Assembly (NCBI GenBank): GCA_965217585.1
Contig: OZ244561.1
Location: 3,456,001-3,520,000, forward strand
Length of the DNA: 64,000 nucleotides
Origin: Candidatus Latescibacterota bacterium
Lineage (GTDB): Bacteria > Latescibacterota > UBA2968 > UBA8231
Direction of reading: 5' to 3'
A program made the translations under genes and the position numbers. How positions within the stretch are numbered: the stretch's first letter is position 1; each line of letters starts with the position of its first letter. Of this stretch, positions 6,829 through 46,532 are shown piece by piece. The notes under the pieces were generated by a model. That model did not search any database, was not told where the DNA came from, and saw only the letters and a program-made list of their open reading frames with translations.

Positions 6829-8409
6829 TTAAAGACTGACTTGTTTGGCCCAGGAGATGTACTCCCGAGAGAGAATATCGTCAACTACGTCGGTGGTGAT
6901 CGGGTCATCGACGTTGAGGATGGTCAGGGCTTGGCCGCCCATTTGGCGACGCCCGCACGACATTTGGGCGATGTTGACATTGTGGCTGCCCATGACCGTG
7001 CCGATTTGGCCGATGATGCCCGGGACATCATCGTTGATGTAAAAGAGCATGTGCCCCTCTGGGACGGCGTCGAAAATGTACTCGTCGAGGTGTACGAGGC
7101 GCGGGTCGCTCTTGCCGAAGATCGTGCCCGCGAGCAGGCGCTGCCCCTTGTTGGTGTGATACACCACGGTGATGAGACTGGCGTAGTCCTCGTGCTCGCT
7201 GCTGAGCCGCTCATCGACTTGCACGCCGCGCTCCTGCGCGAAGAGCAGCGCATTGACCACATTGACTGACGCGTCCGAGACGGTCTCCATAATGCCCTTG
7301 AGTACGGCCGAGGTCAGCGGCGAGGTCGGGTAGGCAGTGACGTCGCCTTGGTATTCGATGGTGATGCGCTCTAGCTGTCCCGCGCCGAGTTGGGCTTGTA
7401 GGCGACCTAGCCGCTCGGCCAGCACGAGGTAGGGCTGTAGTTTGCCGTGGATCTCGGGATCAACCGAAGGGGCGTTGACCGCGTTGCGAATGACGCGGCC
7501 CATCAGCACGTCGCCGACCTGTTCGGCCACCTGCAAGGCGACATTGGCTTGGGCTTCCTTGGTGGAGGCGGCCAAGTGCGGCGTGCAGATCACGCGGTCG
7601 TCAACCAAGAGGTCCACGAGGGTCGGCGGCTCCTCCTCGAAGACGTCTAAGGCGGCACCGGCTACCTTGCCCGAGGCCAAGCCGCGCAGGAGGGCGTCCT
7701 CGTCAATGATGCCGCCGCGGGCGCAATTGATTAGATAGACCCCGTCTTTACACTGAGCGATCTCGGCGTCGGAAATCAGGTGCCGGGTCTGGTCGCTGAG
7801 ATGGGTGTGGACGGTGATAAAATCCGCGGTAGCGTAGATCTCGTCGAGGGGCGCGAGATGTGCGCCGCAGGAGAGGGCGACCTCTTGGCCGATATAGGGA
7901 TCGTAGCCGAGGACTTTCATGTGAAAGGCCGCCGCGCGCGCGGCCACTTCCCTCCCCACTTGGCCCAAGCCGACCACAGCGAGGGTCTTGCCGGCCAGCT
8001 CGACGCCGACGAATTGGCTCCGTTCCCACAGCCCCCTTTTAAGCGAGGCCGTCGCCTGCGGGATGTGCCGCGCAAGGGAGGCTATGAGCGCGAAGGTGTG
8101 CTCGGCGGTCGATAGGGAATTGCCGCCCGGGGTATTCATGACGATGACGCCGTGGCGGGTTGCCGCCTCTACGTCGATGTTGTCGAAGCCCGTGCCGGCG
8201 CGGCCAATGACCCGGAGGCGCGGCGCGGCGGCGAGCACCTCGGCCGTCACTTTGGTCGCGCTGCGCACGACGAGTCCCTCGTAGTCGCCGATGCAGTCTA
8301 TGAGCGCGCTCGGCGACAACCCGCTGCGCACGTCAACTGCGATCCCGTCATTGGCTTCGAGGATCTCGACGCAGCGGGGGTCCATCTTGTCGCTGATCAG
8401 TACTTTCAT
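6829..8409 (-). CDS. serA: D-3-phosphoglycerate dehydrogenase (long form, ASB+ACT)
   Basis: RAGTGFDNID, GLGQVG, NCARGG, TPHLAAST, C-terminal ACT (DVPGIIG). Confidence 0.95.
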   Translation of the reverse strand: MKVLISDKMDPRCVEILEANDGIAVDVRSGLSPSALIDCIGDYEGLVVRSATKVTAEVLAAAPRLRVIGRAGTGFDNIDVEAATRHGVIVMNTPGGNSLSTAEHTFALIASLARHIPQATASLKRGLWERSQFVGVELAGKTLAVVGLGQVGREVAARAAAFHMKVLGYDPYIGQEVALSCGAHLAPLDEIYATADFITVHTHLSDQTRHLISDAEIAQCKDGVYLINCARGGIIDEDALLRGLASGKVAGAALDVFEEEPPTLVDLLVDDRVICTPHLAASTKEAQANVALQVAEQVGDVLMGRVIRNAVNAPSVDPEIHGKLQPYLVLAERLGRLQAQLGAGQLERITIEYQGDVTAYPTSPLTSAVLKGIMETVSDASVNVVNALLFAQERGVQVDERLSSEHEDYASLITVVYHTNKGQRLLAGTIFGKSDPRLVHLDEYIFDAVPEGHMLFYINDDVPGIIGQIGTVMGSHNVNIAQMSCGRRQMGGQALTILNVDDPITTDVVDDILSREYISWAKQVSL

Positions 8410-8417
8410 GGTCCTCT

Positions 8418-9011
8418 TTAGGTTGCGTTGCCAACTAGCGCCTCGGCGATCCACCCTGTAATGTCGTCTTGCCCGCGGCCGTCAACCGCCGAGAAGGGCA
8501 CAAAGGAAAGGCCGGCGAGCGATCCTTGGTCATCGAGCTGGTCGAACAGGTGTTGCAACTTATTGTGCGACAGTTTGTCGGCCTTGGTAAAGACCAGCAG
8601 GAAGGGCTTATCGAGCGCGCGCAATTCGTCGATCATCTGCCGGTCCAGATCGGTGGGGCCGCGCCGGGCATCGACGAGCTGCAACACCGCGCACAATGCC
8701 TCGCGATTGGTCATGTAGCTGCGGATGAGTTGGCCGAGCTGTAAGCGCAAACCCACGCCGCCGCGCACGTACCCGTAGCCGGGCAGATCAACTAAGTAGA
8801 ACTGCCCGTTGGCCAGATAGTAGTTTAACTGCTGGGTCTTGCCGGGTACGGTGCTGGTGCGCGCCAGCTTCTTGCGCTGCACCAACCTGTTGATCAGGGA
8901 AGACTTGCCGACGTTGGAGCGGCCCACTAAGGCGATTTCGGGCAAGCCGTCCTTGGGCAGATCGGCCGTGCGGACGGCACTAATTTTGAATTCGGCAGAG
9001 GAAAAGCGCAT
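8418..9011 (-). CDS. engB: Ribosome biogenesis GTPase YihA/YsxC
   Basis: GRSNVGKSS, PGKT, DLPGYG, TKADK; downstream of clpX. Confidence 0.95.
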   Translation of the reverse strand: MRFSSAEFKISAVRTADLPKDGLPEIALVGRSNVGKSSLINRLVQRKKLARTSTVPGKTQQLNYYLANGQFYLVDLPGYGYVRGGVGLRLQLGQLIRSYMTNREALCAVLQLVDARRGPTDLDRQMIDELRALDKPFLLVFTKADKLSHNKLQHLFDQLDDQGSLAGLSFVPFSAVDGRGQDDITGWIAEALVGNAT

Positions 9012-9027
9012 CGCCGGGGTTTGGAGA

Positions 9028-10275
9028 TTAGGCGCGTTTGCGCCGCATCTCTTCGTCTTCGCTGCTGGACCGTGCGATCCCGCTCTCGATCATCTCGCCC
9101 GTAACTTGCAGGCGCGTGACTTCCTCCTGAGAGGGAATATCGAACATGATGTCCATCATAGCCTGCTCTAGGACAGAGCGCAGGCCGCGGGCCCCAGTGC
9201 CCTTGTGAACGGTCAGGGCCACTACCTTGCGCAGGGCTTCCTCTGTGAACTCGACCTCGACTCCATCCATGGCGAAGAGCCGCTGCGACTGCTTGATGAT
9301 GGCGTCGTGCGGCTCGGTGAGGATGCGGAGCAAGTCGTCCTCGATGAGCGCGTCCATGGTGGTGATTACCGGTACGCGGCCGACAAATTCGGGGATCATG
9401 CCGTAGGCGAGCAGATCCTCGGGCTGTACCAGCGGCAATACGTCCGGGGTGTCGAGGCTATTCTCGTCGCCGTCGGCCCCAAAGCCCATGGTGCGCTTGC
9501 CGACCCGTTGGCTGATGACCTTATCCAGCCCCTCGAAGGCCCCGCCGCAGACGAAGAGGATGTTGCGGGTATCCATCTGGATCATCGGCTGCTCAGGGTG
9601 CTTGCGGCCCCCCTTGGGCGGGATGTTGGCGGTGGTGCCCTCCAAAATTTTGAGCAGTGCTTGCTGCACGCCCTCGCCCGACACATCGCGGCCGACCGAA
9701 GGCGCGGCGCTCTTGCGGGCGATCTTGTCAACCTCGTCGAGATAGAGGATGCCCTTTTCAGCGCGGGGCACGTCGTAATCGGCCGCTTGCAAAAGGCCCA
9801 CGAGGATGTTTTCCACGTCCTCGCCCACGTAGCCGGCCTCAGTGAGAATGGTGGCGTCGGCAATGGAGAAGGGGACTTGCAGGAATTTTGCGAGCGTTTT
9901 GGCTAGCTCGGTCTTGCCGGTGCCGGTAGGGCCGATGAGCATTACGTTGCTTTTCTCGAGCTCCACCTCGTCTAAGTCAACTTTGGTGCGAATGCGCTTG
10001 TAGTGATTGTACACGGCGACCGCGAGAATTTTCTTGGCCCGCTCTTGGGCGATCACGTATTCGTCGAGAAAATCCTTGATTTGGGTCGGCTTGGGCATCT
10101 CTGCGGTCTCCCAGGGGAGGGTCTTTTGCCGCTCCTCGGCCAGTACGTTGTTGCACAGCTTGACGCACTCGTTGCAGATGTGGACCTGGGGGCCGGTTAT
10201 GATCTTGTCAACTTGGTTGTGACTGCGCCCGCAGAACGAGCAGCGCGGATCGCTTTGGGGAGGCCGGCGACGCAA
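9028..10275 (-). CDS. clpX: Clp protease ATP-binding subunit ClpX
   Basis: Zn finger [28 protein letters not shown]. Confidence 0.98.
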
Positions 10276-41939: not shown

Positions 41940-43346
41940 TTAATCCCGATAGGAAATCCCAAAGAGAATCATCATCTCGTCTGTTGACAAGAAACCGAAA
42001 TTGACTTCTTGGTCGGTCGTGTTGTCGTAGGTTGCCTCTAACCTGAAGCCTTCCCCTCGCTCTAGGACCAGAGGGGAGTCGAATCTCAGGATCGGCGGGT
42101 GGTCCCAATCGTAGGCGGCGTAGATGAGCTCGCCGTCGTGCGCTCCCCCGATCATTTCGACCCGGAATTCTACCATGAGCTGATGAGCGTGCGAGAGTAG
42201 CTGCACAATGTGGGTCCGCTTGGAGAAGGTAAAATCCTTCTCTATGGTCGTCACCTCCCCGGCCGGCAGGGAGATATCAAGATTGTTCAAAGAAAAAAGA
42301 CGCGCCTCGTGCTCGACTTCAGACGGGTCGGCAAAGTGCAAGTTGGTATAGACCTCGCCGGTAACGGGCTGACTGGTGCGATTGACATAGTGCGAGTTGA
42401 GGTCGAGCAAAGTGTTCTTGGGCAGCCGTATCGCCACTCCAGGCGGCAGGGAGACATCAATGGAAGGCCATTGGCTGCCGGCGATTGGCAGGTGGTAAAA
42501 TTGCGTGAGTATGGTTGCAAGGACGTACTGGCCGGTGCCGTTGTGCAACTCGCGATATTCGTAGGGTTCCGGCATGCGCTCGGGAGGTATGTCGTCTTGG
42601 AATGTGTAGAGTAGGAAGTGGTGCGAGCCGGACTTCATAAAGATCTGGACGCGCTCTAGGAATATATCGTCTTCGTTGTTCAGCGGATGCACGACAAAGA
42701 TCTCGCGCTCGGAGTTGGGTTGTATCTCGAAAGGCGGCAAGTGCAGTTGGACGCCGTTTTCCGGCTCGGCTAGCGGCTTGAACTCCGGCTCCTCGTAGCG
42801 CGACTTGTCCTTCAAGAGGTCTGGGTCGGCCACGTGGCCTGTCTCCGGTGCGCCCGCCTCGATCCAAGCGCGGATAAAAGCCAACTCGCCGTTGGTCAGC
42901 GGCTTGTCGCCAAGGGGCATTATCTCCCCGTAATAGGGATGGTCGCCGTAGAAATGCTGCTGGTCGGGAGCGTTGAGCTTCTCCCACAAATAGCTCTTGA
43001 GAAGGCCGGGCATACCCTGTCCGAGGTCGCTGACCCGCATCAGCCCGTCGGCCGCGGCGGCCGCGTTCGTCGGAGCGGCACCCACGAGCTGTTCGTAGGC
43101 CACGTCCGGGGTGAGTACGAGGCTCGACTGACGCCCAAACGAGGTCCCAGCCGTGTGGCAGCTAACGCATTGGCCGGCGAAAATTTCCGTTTGGATAATA
43201 TCCCAAGTCGAATCGGACTCATGCACGGCCGTTTGGACCGGCCCCGGGCCGTCGGCACTACAGCCGACGAAAATCGAGCCTATGAGCAAGCAGCGGCGAA
43301 TTGTGCGGCTTGCGCGCTCGGGATATGTGGGGGGTAGCATGATCAC
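41940..43346 (-). CDS. Putative lipoprotein: CxxCH heme-c domain + copper type II (PHM/DBH-like) monooxygenase domains
   Basis: FVGC lipobox-like, CVSCH, SHHF, SHYVN, SHAH, DEMM. Confidence 0.75.
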   Translation of the reverse strand: MIMLPPTYPERASRTIRRCLLIGSIFVGCSADGPGPVQTAVHESDSTWDIIQTEIFAGQCVSCHTAGTSFGRQSSLVLTPDVAYEQLVGAAPTNAAAAADGLMRVSDLGQGMPGLLKSYLWEKLNAPDQQHFYGDHPYYGEIMPLGDKPLTNGELAFIRAWIEAGAPETGHVADPDLLKDKSRYEEPEFKPLAEPENGVQLHLPPFEIQPNSEREIFVVHPLNNEDDIFLERVQIFMKSGSHHFLLYTFQDDIPPERMPEPYEYRELHNGTGQYVLATILTQFYHLPIAGSQWPSIDVSLPPGVAIRLPKNTLLDLNSHYVNRTSQPVTGEVYTNLHFADPSEVEHEARLFSLNNLDISLPAGEVTTIEKDFTFSKRTHIVQLLSHAHQLMVEFRVEMIGGAHDGELIYAAYDWDHPPILRFDSPLVLERGEGFRLEATYDNTTDQEVNFGFLSTDEMMILFGISYRD

Positions 43347-43358
43347 CTGCGGGAGGAT

Positions 43359-44201
43359 TCAAATTCCGGCTTGGTCGATCAGGCCAGCCAAGTTCTGGCC
43401 CAGGATCAGGCGCTTGTGCTCGTCTGGTACGAACGTGCAGTGCGTGCGGAATGCCTCGAGCGCGTGCTGGTAGGTCATGTTGGTTCGCACTACCGGGTAG
43501 TCCGAACCCCAGCACAGCCGCTGGGGGCCGAAGTGCTCGTAGAGTTGGCGCACGATGTGGTGCGTATCCGAGTAGGGGTAATCCCACGAGACGTGCGAAG
43601 CGTAGTGAAAGCCCGAGAGCTTGATGTAGATGTTGGGCACCTCGGCCGAGCGCAGAATCTCCTGCAGGTTGGGATGCGGCACTTCCTCGCGCGCGTTGGC
43701 CCCGGCCATGTGATGACAGAGAAAAGTCACCGACGGAAAGCGCCGCGCCAGCTCGCGCAGCGCTGGCTGCCACTGCGGCCCTAAGGCCAAGCTGGCGATC
43801 AGGTTTAGATCGGCTGTGGTGCTGAAAAACGCGAGCCCCTCCTCGGAAGCAAACCACTCGGTGTCGCTTTTTACGTAGTGAGTATAGCCCTTGAGTTGGT
43901 ACTTTGCCGCGGCCGCTTTGAGCCGCTCGGCCGCACCGGGGGTGTGGTATTCTTCCGACCACGAGCAATCCACGTCGGCGAATTGCACCAATCGATCTGG
44001 ATAGGCACGGATTTGTTCGGCGACGTAGTCGTTGTTGTGGGGATTGTGCTCGATGCGGGCGCAGACCAACACGGCCTTATCGACGCCGTTGCGGTCCATT
44101 TCCCACAGCAGTTGCTCGGCCCGGCCGCGGCTGTTGTGATCGGGCACGGGTGGCTCGTAGGGCCAGTATTCCCAAGCGTGAGTATGCGAGTCGATTATCA
44201 T
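43359..44201 (-). CDS. Amidohydrolase_2 family metal-dependent hydrolase
   Basis: IIDSHTH, HHM, NIYIKLSG, WGSDYP. Confidence 0.88.
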   Translation of the reverse strand: MIIDSHTHAWEYWPYEPPVPDHNSRGRAEQLLWEMDRNGVDKAVLVCARIEHNPHNNDYVAEQIRAYPDRLVQFADVDCSWSEEYHTPGAAERLKAAAAKYQLKGYTHYVKSDTEWFASEEGLAFFSTTADLNLIASLALGPQWQPALRELARRFPSVTFLCHHMAGANAREEVPHPNLQEILRSAEVPNIYIKLSGFHYASHVSWDYPYSDTHHIVRQLYEHFGPQRLCWGSDYPVVRTNMTYQHALEAFRTHCTFVPDEHKRLILGQNLAGLIDQAGI

Positions 44202-45501
44202 CGAAAACCTCTTTAGGAGACGGTCGTCTTTAGGCGGCCGAGGAATAAAGAGCGGTCGGAGCGATGGGGCCTTGGGCCCCCTGAGCAAAGGCCATAAAGG
44301 GCTTGACTCGGTTTCGCGGAATGGGTCCCTTTAGCATGGTGAAGCGGATCATTCAAATCCAACTCCGGCCTACGCCCGATCAAGCGGCGGCGCTTAAAAA
44401 GACAATGTGCCGCTTTAATCAGGCGTGTAATTGGGTGACTCAACGGGCGTTTGAGCGCAATCTGGCCAACCGTTATGCCTTGCACAAGCTGTACTATTAT
44501 GCCGTGCGCCAGCAGTTTGACCTGCCTGCGCAAATGGCCTGTCTGACCTTTGCCCAAGTGGCCGCTGCCTATAAGCGCGACAAGAGCAAAAAGGTGTCGT
44601 TTCGTCCTTTGGCGTCGATGCCCTACGACGCGCGCCTTTTGCATTACCGAGGGCTGGACCGGGTGTCGCTTTCGACGCTGGACGGGCGCATCGTCGTGCC
44701 AATGGTGATGGGTGCCTACCAAGCCGAGCAGTTCGGCCACGTCAAGCGGTATGCCGAGTTGGTGCGACGGCGGGATGGCCAGTGGTTTTTGATGGCTACC
44801 GTCGAGTTCGACGAGGTGCCGCCGGTCGATCCCAATGACTTCCTCGGCGTGGATCTCGGTGTGGCGAATCTGGCGACGGACTCGGACGGTCAACAGCATT
44901 CGGGTGCCGACGTGGAGCGCGTGCGCGTAAAGTGCCAGACAATGCGTCAAAAGCTGCAATCGGCGGCCGACCAAGCTCAAAACACTCGCCGCCGCAAGCG
45001 CATCCGCAAGAAACTGCACCGACGCGCGCGCAAAGAAGCCAACTTCCGCAGAAACACCAATCACGTCCTCTCCAAGCGACTCGTTGAGCAGGCTAAAGGC
45101 ACTGTCCGGGGTATTGCCCTCGAAGACCTCAAGGGTATCCGGGATAGCATCCGGTTTCGCAAGCCTCAACGCGCCCGCATGGCGGGATGGGCTTTTGACC
45201 AACTGAGGCAGTTTATCGCCTACAAGGCGCAAGCTGCCGGCGTGTTGGTCGAGATGGTCGATCCCAAGCATACCAGTCAGAGGTGTGCCGAGTGTGGCCA
45301 TGTCGAGCGAGCCAATCGCTGCTCTCAATCTGAGTTTTGTTGTCGTCGCTGTGGGCTGAAAGTCCATGCCGATGTCAACGCGGCTCGGAACATCCGAGCC
45401 AGGGCTCTGTGTCAACGAGCCCATAGTTTCGGCCTCCCTACCGCTGCGGCGGCTGGGTAAGGCTAGGGACAAGCCGCCTCCTTTAGGGGGCGGTAGTTGA
45501 C
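44202..45501 (+). mobile_element. Non-autonomous IS200/IS605-family (IS1341-type) element carrying tnpB only
   Basis: Left hairpin CGGTCGTC-TTTA-GGCGGCCG (44221-44240); right hairpin GCCGCCTCC-TTTA-GGGGGCGGT (45473-45494) followed by TGAC (45498-45501); no tnpA; left boundary inferred. Confidence 0.85.
44336..45460 (+). CDS. tnpB: RNA-guided endonuclease TnpB
   Basis: RuvC-I GVDLG, RuvC-II IALEDL, Zn finger CAEC/CRRC, RuvC-III HADVNAARNI. Confidence 0.95.
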   Translation: MVKRIIQIQLRPTPDQAAALKKTMCRFNQACNWVTQRAFERNLANRYALHKLYYYAVRQQFDLPAQMACLTFAQVAAAYKRDKSKKVSFRPLASMPYDARLLHYRGLDRVSLSTLDGRIVVPMVMGAYQAEQFGHVKRYAELVRRRDGQWFLMATVEFDEVPPVDPNDFLGVDLGVANLATDSDGQQHSGADVERVRVKCQTMRQKLQSAADQAQNTRRRKRIRKKLHRRARKEANFRRNTNHVLSKRLVEQAKGTVRGIALEDLKGIRDSIRFRKPQRARMAGWAFDQLRQFIAYKAQAAGVLVEMVDPKHTSQRCAECGHVERANRCSQSEFCCRRCGLKVHADVNAARNIRARALCQRAHSFGLPTAAAAG

Positions 45502-45521
45502 AAGAAGCTCAAGAGGGTGTC
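45380..45521 (+). ncRNA. Predicted omegaRNA/reRNA scaffold plus guide (45502-~45521)
   Basis: TnpB reRNAs overlap the tnpB 3' end and the right end, with the guide taken from the flank; 5' boundary is approximate. Confidence 0.55.
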
Positions 45522-45558
45522 GTTGTTAAGCGTCAGTGGCGTATGGCAAAAGATACTG

Positions 45559-45596
45559 AAAAAAAGGGTACTCTGACAAATCTGTCATTGATACCC
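45559..45596 (-). terminator. Terminator-like hairpin with T-run (minus strand)
   Basis: Minus strand GGGTA..TGACA-gatt-TGTCA..TACCC-TTTTTTT. Confidence 0.5.
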
Positions 45597-45740
45597 ATAA
45601 CGCATTTGTTTATATAAATCCGCGTCCTCGCTAGGCGCGGGTTCCAACTTGCGTCATCTGTGCTCAAAAGAAGACCGGGATGCGGATTCCGGACGCAGTT
45701 TCGCCACGGACAGGTGGACTGATACAACGAAGGGAGCGGT

Positions 45741-46445
45741 ATGAGTATACGAAACGTAGCGGTCATCACCGGGGCGGGACGCGGCATGGGTGCGGCCATC
45801 GCGCGCAACCTCGTGGGCCAAGGCTGGGCGGTCTCGCTGCTTTCACCCTCCGGAGCGGCCGAATCGCTAGCGGAGGAACTGGGCGGCATCGGGGTGACCG
45901 GTACCGTTACGGAGGAGGGAGACCTGCGGCGACTCGTCGATCAGACCATGGACGCGTACGGCCGCATCGACGGCGTCGTCAACAGCACGGGCCATCCGCC
46001 CAAGGGCAGTCTCCTAGATATCCCGGACGAGGACTGGCACGAGGGGCTGGATATCGTCTTTCTGAACGTGGTTCGCATGGCCCGGATCGTCACGCCGATC
46101 TTGGTCAGGCAGGGCGGGGGATCGATTGTCAACATCTCCACCTTTGCCGTCTTCGAACCCGAGCATCACTTCCCCGTTTCGACGCCCTGCAGGGCGGCCC
46201 TGGCGAGTTTTACGAAGATCTACGCAGATAACCACGCCAACGACAACATCCGGATGAACAATATCCTACCGGGTTTCATCGACAGCCTCCCGGAAGTGGA
46301 ATCGTTCAAGTCGCGCATTCCCATGGGACGTTACGGAACCGTGGAGGAGATCGCCGAAACCGCCGCCTTCCTCCTCTCTCCCGGCGCTGGATACATAACC
46401 GGACAGAACCTACGGGTCGACGGGGGCATTACGCGGTCGGTGTGA
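45741..46445 (+). CDS. SDR family oxidoreductase
   Basis: TGAGRGMG, VNIST, NNILPG, YITGQNLRVDGG. Confidence 0.92.
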   Translation: MSIRNVAVITGAGRGMGAAIARNLVGQGWAVSLLSPSGAAESLAEELGGIGVTGTVTEEGDLRRLVDQTMDAYGRIDGVVNSTGHPPKGSLLDIPDEDWHEGLDIVFLNVVRMARIVTPILVRQGGGSIVNISTFAVFEPEHHFPVSTPCRAALASFTKIYADNHANDNIRMNNILPGFIDSLPEVESFKSRIPMGRYGTVEEIAETAAFLLSPGAGYITGQNLRVDGGITRSV

Positions 46446-46532
46446 CGGATGTCGGCGGTCCGGGCGGCCTGAAGGTCCGTGCCGGTTGGGGACACCCGGT
46501 TCGGACGCGCACGAGCATCCATTGAAAGAAAT

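Follow-up and report, generated by a model that had tools for sequence, protein, structure and literature searches.

A tnpB-only IS200/IS605 element at start codons in Candidatus Latescibacterota, with a left end that resembles an outward ribosome-binding site

Insertion sequences are usually viewed as gene breakers or as accidental promoters. What becomes of a gene when such an element lies exactly between its leader and its start codon, and how does the element come to lie there? These questions are raised by a 64,000-nt stretch of the genome of a Candidatus Latescibacterota bacterium (assembly GCA_965217585.1, contig OZ244561.1, forward-strand positions 3,456,001 to 3,520,000), which we call the window and whose first letter is position 1. 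The genome it comes from, here G000, comprises 7.32 Mb in one contig. At window positions 44202 to 45501 we found a TnpB-only element of the IS200/IS605 type, 1,300 bp long and accompanied by no target duplication, which sits base-exactly between the native leader and the ATG of an amidohydrolase gene. A preliminary description of this locus had suggested that the element targets ATGA starts and carries an outward Shine-Dalgarno (SD) sequence, so that it replaces the 5' untranslated region of a gene instead of knocking the gene out. The account that we favor after comparing copies across related genomes is that insertion at start codons follows from a YCAT target (Y, C or T) and is tolerated through a compensating left-end ribosome-binding site (RBS) and read-through transcription; taking all the evidence together, we consider this account probable.

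The insertion at the amidohydrolase gene

Both ends of the element can be placed to the base. On the right, 30 copies from the genus align through ..GGTTGAC| and diverge after it, which puts the boundary (...GTAGTTGAC|) at 45501. The left boundary comes from empty sites: in related genomes, 19 of the 19 orthologous loci examined read GATTATCAT|AAGAAGC(T/C), a sequence that is found here after position 45501. The empty allele in the relatives is ...ATTATCAT|AAGAAGCTCAAG..., with the junction directly after TCAT. An empty allele of this kind had been predicted in the preliminary description, and it excludes a boundary after TTTA or TCTT, either of which would have made the SD sequence native. 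When we blasted the flanks of 21 other copies against G000, 11 of them mapped both flanks side by side, revealing exact empty sites for these copies as well.

The target and left cleavage tetranucleotide (C_L) is TCAT at 44198-44201 on the plus strand, identified by the empty sites and by its covariation with the left guide. It is the antisense of ATGA, that is, of the amidohydrolase start codon plus one base, and it is probably also the target-adjacent motif (TAM) of TnpB. Next on the plus strand come a 15-nt linker, CGAAAACCTCTTTAG (44202-44216), which read outward on the minus strand occupies gene positions -1 to -15; the left guide tetranucleotide (G_L) GAGA (44217-44220), the 4 nt 5' of the hairpin foot; and the left subterminal hairpin IP_L, CGGTCG-TCTTTAGG-CGGCCG (44221-44240), recognized in the sequence and with equivalents in other copies. 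The tnpB gene (44336-45460, plus strand) is an intact open reading frame (ORF) of 374 amino acids, with profile matches to PF01385 OrfB_IS605 (1.8e-12) and PF07282 Cas12f1-like_TNB (2e-22), both above the Pfam cutoffs. Given the 30-copy alignment, the right end (45470-45501, plus strand) consists of the guide G_R CAAG (45470-45473), a hairpin (45474-45493), and the cleavage tetranucleotide C_R TGAC (45498-45501). The two subterminal hairpins have similar TTTAGG-type loops and equivalents in 30 copies, and there are no terminal inverted repeats. TCAT, GAGA, the left hairpin, CAAG, and TGAC had all been placed at these positions before, correctly so on re-reading the sequence.

In IS608, according to excerpts of the paper on it, the left hairpin foot carries a 4-nt guide and is found 19 nt 3' of the cleavage tetranucleotide, insertion takes place 3' of the target with nothing gained or lost, and IS608-type TnpA reads the tetranucleotide only, via G_L (PMC3201880). 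Our element has the same 19 nt between cleavage site and hairpin foot, so the IS608-like spacing proposed earlier for TCAT agrees with the published value. The guide/cleavage pairs in these excerpts are AAAG/TTAC and TCAA only (PMC3201880). Among the copies that we aligned, G_L and C_L change together at two positions, giving the pairs GAGA/TCAT, GGGA/CCAT, and GAAG or GATG/TCAC, and the right-end pairs are CAAG/TGAC and AAAG/TTAC. The covariation backs the earlier rule by which the guide GAGA predicts a cleavage site TCnT; the register in which guides pair with cleavage sites is one that we take to be that of IS608.

The amidohydrolase gene (43359-44201, minus strand, with its ATG at 44201..44199) is intact and encodes 280 amino acids with an Amidohydro_2 domain (PF04909, E = 3.4e-30, profile positions 1-282 on residues 3-270). 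We accept the ATG at 44201 as the true start because position 1 of the Pfam profile falls on residue 3; the ORF of 843 nt also has the same length in 19 of 19 relatives examined. TCAT is thus confirmed as the reverse complement of a real ATG-A start. Nine substitutions in the gene are unique to G000, eight synonymous and one nonsynonymous, and there is no frameshift. Across the left junction, the minus strand now reads CCTAAAGAGGTTTTCG-ATG-ATA. The native leader, which adjoins the ATG in the 19 relatives, has been displaced to 45502-45579 (minus strand), 1.3 kb away. A promoter scan found in it a promoter-like site, TTGTCA-18-TATCTT (45579..45550, minus strand), whose surroundings are conserved in the empty sites of the relatives and which is probably the native amidohydrolase promoter.

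Start codons as insertion sites in related genomes

We scored an insertion as a start event if the antisense ATG at its boundary is the true N terminus of an ORF that has 100 amino acids or more. The left boundary was defined in 22 copies of TnpB family A (representing 21 events), in 10 copies of family B, which is the second TnpB family of the genus and about 40% identical to family A, and in 4 TCAT copies from genus g8. Altogether, 21 of the 35 independent YCAT-target insertions abut the ATG of a real gene: 10/21 in family A, 7/10 in family B, and 4/4 in the g8 TCAT subfamily. One copy (L042) was counted as an in-gene insertion, given that its long ORF is the C-terminal part of a methyltransferase gene.

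The genes behind these boundaries are intact. Their Pfam matches include HisD, HisG, Ddl, class I/II aminotransferase, sulfatase, PhyH, STAS, HlyD-type, and solute-binding proteins, among others, and the profiles start at residues 1-22 or behind signal peptides. A DapL-type aminotransferase gene is among the intact targets, and both ddl (in genome G089) and hisD (in genome G012) carry the element at the start and are each the sole copy in their genome. Where G000 is empty, the same ATG opens the same ORF, with lengths (in amino acids, for the pairs compared) of 441/440, 266/259, 411/413, 416/415, 168/168, 434/439, and 408/408.

To judge how many start events chance would give, we took the null from G000, in which 3,422 of 97,073 ATGR sites (3.5%; R, A or G) serve as a gene's first ATG, going by a crude set of genes built from ORFs. 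The genome has 7,415 to 10,141 intergenic ATGR sites, so that starts make up 25 to 32% of the non-disruptive sites. For 21/35 at starts, P = 4e-22 against 3.5%, 1e-5 against 25%, and 6e-4 against 32%; the enrichment at start codons that the preliminary description implied is therefore present under each of these expectations. Elements that carry tnpA were at a start in one of four cases. In the TCAC-target sister subfamily, the figure was one of nine events, the start in that case being a GTG (Fisher P = 0.02). This sister subfamily (L079-L088, genus g8, guide GAAG or GATG) has an outward sequence without an SD, and its left end begins with CTAA, which provides the stop codon for a plus-strand gene that the insertion has cut at the 3' end (L080 = L082). 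The TnpB matches of genus g8 (L068-L090) were all flagged as containing one TAA; by eye, this TAA seems to be where the gene really stops, the search having run on into the conserved right-end region.

Because the flanks of the aligned insertions show no base preference beyond YCAT, we put the start-codon excess down mainly to selection on the insertions that persist. YCAT alone is demonstrably targeted, and the enrichment may come from insertion survival. The claim that the element targets ATGA starts thus divides into two parts: strong enrichment at starts is upheld, and targeting is narrowed to the tetranucleotide, with survival as a possible source of the rest.

The left end, operon junctions, and competing accounts

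The 3' end of the G000 16S rRNA, GGATCACCTCCTTTCT, served as the anti-SD in our duplex energies. SD use in G000 is moderate: energies of -8 kcal/mol or lower occur at 31% of gene starts versus 13% of internal ATGs. Read outward, the copy in the window presents AAGAGG-UUUUCG-AUG, where the SD-like AAGAGG (44208-44213, minus strand) stands 6 nt before the ATG. Its duplex energy with the genome's own 16S tail is -9.3 kcal/mol versus -1.9 kcal/mol for the displaced native leader, bearing out the earlier contrast between a strong outward SD and a weak SD at the empty site. The 27 distinct left ends from the genus are rich in A at positions 1-5 of the top strand and have almost nothing but pyrimidines at positions 7-12; the outward reading is a purine block at -7 to -12, a U-rich spacer at -1 to -5, and then the ATG. 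The corresponding sequence in genus g8 is CUGGAGG(U/A)AAA-AUG, with energies of -9.3 to -10.7 kcal/mol. Mean SD energies are -6.0 kcal/mol for left-end leaders and -6.2 kcal/mol for the native leaders that they displaced, compared to -6.1 kcal/mol at gene starts and -4.7 kcal/mol at internal ATGs generally. We regard the replacement RBS as strong for this copy, plausible for the family, and not universal, because the mean equals that of native leaders and some subfamilies are weak or lack an SD. Of the proposal that an outward SD replaces the 5' untranslated region, what stands is the strong SD of this copy's subfamily and of the second genus; in other subfamilies the SD is weak or absent.

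A solo left-end stub of 27 to 31 nt (L004:1505-1531; G000:C1:4122249-4122275) adjoins the ATG of an enolase-superfamily gene and is followed on its other side by unrelated DNA, and the native leader is kept in 25 of 25 genus orthologs of that gene that were examined. The stub is probably a truncated former start-codon insertion whose outward leader has been retained.

A further feature concerns operons, in which ATGA is the commonest junction. Of 20 start insertions, 8 hit a start on which a long upstream ORF in the same direction had ended; the overlap was ATGA seven times and TGATG once (L011, L031, L040, L069, L071, L100, L102, and L015). Insertion at such an overlap removes the upstream stop, and the ATGA-type ORFs (seven cases) continue into NNG and the antisense right end. 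A new stop follows after 0.3 codons in family B (NNG-TAA), 5.3 codons in family A (a TAA or TGA in the hairpin loop), and 10.3 codons in g8. The NNG-TAA of family B leaves the upstream protein unchanged in both cases seen.

Under the account that we favor, the element would have moved as single-stranded DNA, carried by a Y1 TnpA acting in trans, which would locate TCAT via pairing with the left guide GAGA and insert the element on its 3' side, leaving no duplication. Since TCAT is ATGA read in antisense, each insertion sets the left end against an antisense ATG. The amidohydrolase ORF is untouched, its leader and promoter have been pushed 1.3 kb off, and AAGAGG with the spacer UUUUCG would become the new ribosome-binding region. 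Transcripts started at the displaced native promoter, or coming in from an operon gene upstream, would run through the element antisense to tnpB, and translation of the gene would restart at the left-end RBS. At ATGA overlaps, the antisense right end also re-stops the upstream ORF within 0 to 10 codons. In-gene insertions would be purged by selection and start insertions tolerated thanks to this compensation, such that lineages whose free 15-nt linker resembles an RBS would persist. Regarding transcription, the only minus-strand promoter-like site lies in the displaced leader, and our scan gave no convincing terminator on the antisense strand; read-through would be the simplest model.

The strongest competitor holds that survivorship suffices: TnpA would hit any YCAT, copies within genes would be lost, the RBS look would be incidental (a TnpA requirement or base composition), and the targets would be poorly or otherwise expressed. 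This fits the lack of any flank preference beyond the four bases, and the excess is moderate under the non-disruptive null (60% versus 25-32%). It fits, too, left-end SD strengths that vary widely and are the same at starts and elsewhere, as well as the existence of one subfamily without an SD. However, a gene cut off from its leader and promoter would normally suffer, and still the sole-copy genes ddl and hisD, along with hisG and the DapL-type aminotransferase gene, carry the element and are intact. The purine block and U-rich spacer are kept across TnpB families at about 40% protein identity, the TCAC sister subfamily without such a leader is rarely at starts, and one gene has kept the left-end stub as its sole leader. 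On balance, we think survivorship without compensation unlikely to be the whole explanation.

Several observations weigh against the account that we favor, including the enrichment as we have calculated it. Neither G000 nor the element has a PF01797 match to the Y1 (HUH) transposase TnpA. SD energies in the subfamily of L002, L008, and L009 are -0.5 to -1.8 kcal/mol, and L009 (-1.8 kcal/mol) is nonetheless at the start of a PhyH gene; several other start-associated copies reach only -3 to -4 kcal/mol. The mean taken by hand is about -6.0 kcal/mol for copies at starts and about -6.1 kcal/mol elsewhere, which is no difference. The predicted fold pairs AAAGAGG with an upstream CUCUUUA, at a stability equal to that of shuffled sequence (z = -0.15). 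A consensus scan found no outward promoter in the element, using a sigma-70 consensus that may not fit this phylum, and the 1.3-kb read-through is an assumption. Metatranscriptome Logan contigs over 43300-46500 bridge both junctions (X2 record 10 covers 44168-44348 with one mismatch, and X1 record 6 covers 45370-45956), and these contigs are unstranded and possibly derived from DNA, so they are no proof of expression. As for the statistics, the null comes from the crude ORF gene set of one genome, and the copies are related to one another. Adding three copies judged by eye, none of which is at a start (L014, L046, and L072 = L090), changes the count to 21/38 and gives P = 0.0025 at a null of 0.32. 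The left ends of 8 of the 30 family A copies and of several g8 and g9 copies were undefinable, and these copies were excluded: L007, L010, L013, L014, L033, L037, L046, and L047 in family A (left end truncated, degenerate, or unmatched), L096 in family B, L070, L072, L074, L077, L078, L085, L089, and L090 in g8, and L091 and L092 in g9. Separately, an argument about the age of the insertion from X1 record 4 (44151-44766) was dropped; this contig, whose 41 listed differences all fall to the right of 44396, may be chimeric.

Active targeting of start sites beyond YCAT, for example because the DNA at operon junctions might be locally single-stranded or structured, seems to us very unlikely. It would account for the excess over the survivorship null and for the overlapping stop/start junctions in 8 of 20 start insertions. 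It would also suit one CCAT site that L142 (tnpA-tnpB) and L043 (tnpB-only) have used independently in two genomes and that is empty in G000 (C1:1702170/1702171); this site adjoins a terminator-like hairpin, and the pair suggests recurrent use of one site. Against active targeting, no base outside YCAT is conserved, 14 of 35 copies lie away from gene starts, and in the excerpted IS608 work TnpA recognizes nothing but the tetranucleotide, through G_L (PMC3201880). The last alternative, that the insertion silenced the amidohydrolase so recently that its ORF still looks intact, could appeal to the 1.3-kb distance of promoter and leader and to a large paralogous family in which this gene may be dispensable, but it is hardly credible in view of the almost wholly synonymous changes unique to G000, an element that is not fresh (the copy closest to it within the genome shares 84% identity), and the recurrence of this arrangement in other genomes, at essential or biosynthetic genes that have no second copy there.

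An open frame antisense to tnpB also runs across the whole element. This frame (44213-45472, minus strand) has 428 stop-free codons, 419 of them from a TTG, and ends with a TAA 11 nt before the amidohydrolase ATG. Its translation matches no Pfam family, and its usual first in-frame start, which has no SD, is the antisense of a conserved His codon in the HADxNAA motif. Such a frame requires that tnpB be free of TTA, CTA, and TCA codons: the copy in the window has none, versus about 4.6 expected from its 43 Leu and Ser codons (Poisson P = 0.01), and GC3-matched host genes (matched for GC content at third codon positions) have a median of 7, none of them having 0. Thirty copies of both genus families have 45 such codons versus 150.8 expected, with other A-ending codons not depleted (639 versus 552.8 expected), and 11 diverged representatives have 16 versus 55.7 expected (P = 4e-10, ignoring relatedness). 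The depletion, about 3.5-fold in tnpB genes of these genomes, is not specific to the start-codon families, because unrelated TnpB genes of the same genomes are equally depleted (10 versus 43.4). It may be a lead toward ribosome transit or an antisense product. We entertain, as a doubtful possibility, that the element is a complete kit for occupying start codons, in which a target complementary to ATGR, an outward RBS, a re-stopping right end, and a tnpB purged of TTA, CTA, and TCA would together let ribosomes pass through the element and be handed over to the host gene, avoiding polarity.

Family membership and comparison with known systems

Four of the features tested place the element in the IS200/IS605 group, as a non-autonomous, tnpB-only (IS1341-like) member. 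We classify it as non-autonomous and mobilized in trans because G000 is without a Y1 transposase and relatives carry matching tnpA-tnpB elements. PF01797 matches occur in 15 of 30 genus genomes, and the tnpA-tnpB elements of relatives share the left-end type (CCAT|AAAAA..GGGA-hairpin). G000 has three copies, at 100, 84, and 73% identity, and one 31-nt match to the left end only. The second copy (L002, G000:C1:1751863-1752930) has an in-frame TAG in tnpB, and the ATG at its boundary opens a frame of 18 codons only; it is probably decaying. The cumulative GC skew of G000, lowest near 2.7 Mb and highest near 6.4 Mb, is noisy, and judged from this noisy skew, two of the three copies fit a top strand that is the lagging-strand template. 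In a wider sampling of genome contigs with an IUPAC pattern of the left end, we obtained 11 stretches, nearly all from metagenome-assembled genomes (MAGs) of Candidatus Latescibacterota or Gemmatimonadetes, with a single stretch from an Oscillospiraceae MAG. The same pattern had no matches in metagenome contigs.

No Rfam family for an omega-RNA scored above threshold in the searched region of the element, where the right-end region is highly conserved among copies. A sub-threshold Rfam match to HEARO, the IscB-associated RNA, covers 45334-45501 on the minus strand (18 bits, E = 0.5), and the 5' end of the HEARO consensus resembles the antisense right-end hairpin GUCAAC..CCCUAAAGGAGG..CUUG. In IS1341-type TnpB elements, the sequence 3' of the right end serves as guide. 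By analogy, the first ~16 nt 3' of 45501 (plus strand) would be the omega-RNA guide here, and TCAT+AAGAAGCTCAAGAGGG is a candidate TnpB target of this copy.

Our search of the literature, in which few subscription journals were covered, found no description of IS200/IS605 elements at start codons. As far as the sequences can tell, what appears to be new is a target complementary to the start codon, a base-exact and predominant location at start codons that includes sole-copy essential genes, and ends that look adapted to this location. The TnpB family seems to occupy a base-exact niche between leader and start codon, often at ATGA overlaps in operons. If the account is true, the persistence of tnpB-only elements at essential genes present in a single copy would be explained, a TnpB TAM of YCAT would be expected and with it programmable cuts exactly at start codons, and the element would be a compact natural cassette for swapping RBSs. 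It also makes a general question testable, namely, how far the neighboring host gene shapes the noncoding ends of a transposon.

Known systems share parts of this arrangement. With IS608 (ISHp608) and ISDra2, the prototypes of single-strand "peel and paste" transposition, the element has in common subterminal hairpins at both ends. Excerpts of the IS608 paper describe the same 19-nt placement of the cleavage tetranucleotide relative to a left foot with its guide, the same 3' insertion without duplication, and a right cleavage site that is likewise part of the element and follows the right hairpin after a few nt (PMC3201880). Unlike those two, whose targets are TTAC or TTGAT, our family targets YCAT, the antisense of ATGR; the element has no tnpA, its copies lie mostly on start codons, and its linker resembles an outward RBS. 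Like IS1341-type elements, it has tnpB alone between IS200/IS605-like ends and encodes the OrfB_IS605 and TNB zinc-finger domains, and it differs from those with a 3' omega-RNA in that its only Rfam match is the 18-bit HEARO-like one on the opposite strand.

The closest parallels for the effect on the neighboring gene come from elsewhere. IS1, IS10, and ISAba1 supply outward or hybrid promoters to neighboring genes, and in these, as apparently in our element, an element end provides expression signals for the neighbor. In contrast to those elements, which insert upstream of the gene and not at a fixed distance, the signal here is putatively translational and the junction is base-exact, with no outward promoter detected. 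IStrons are IS200/IS605 or IS607 elements joined to a group I intron. They follow a similar evolutionary logic, in that an IS200/IS605-type element has a device that makes insertions harmless to the host gene, according to excerpts of the paper on them (PMC4227781). IStrons splice themselves out of the mRNA; in our element, an Rfam search of 44000-45800 found no group I intron or other intron family at E <= 1, and instead of splicing, an ORF left whole, a new RBS, and a new stop for the upstream frame would avert the harm. If the favored account holds, start-codon insertion would be a second, splicing-free path to harmless IS200/IS605 insertion, beside that of the IStrons.

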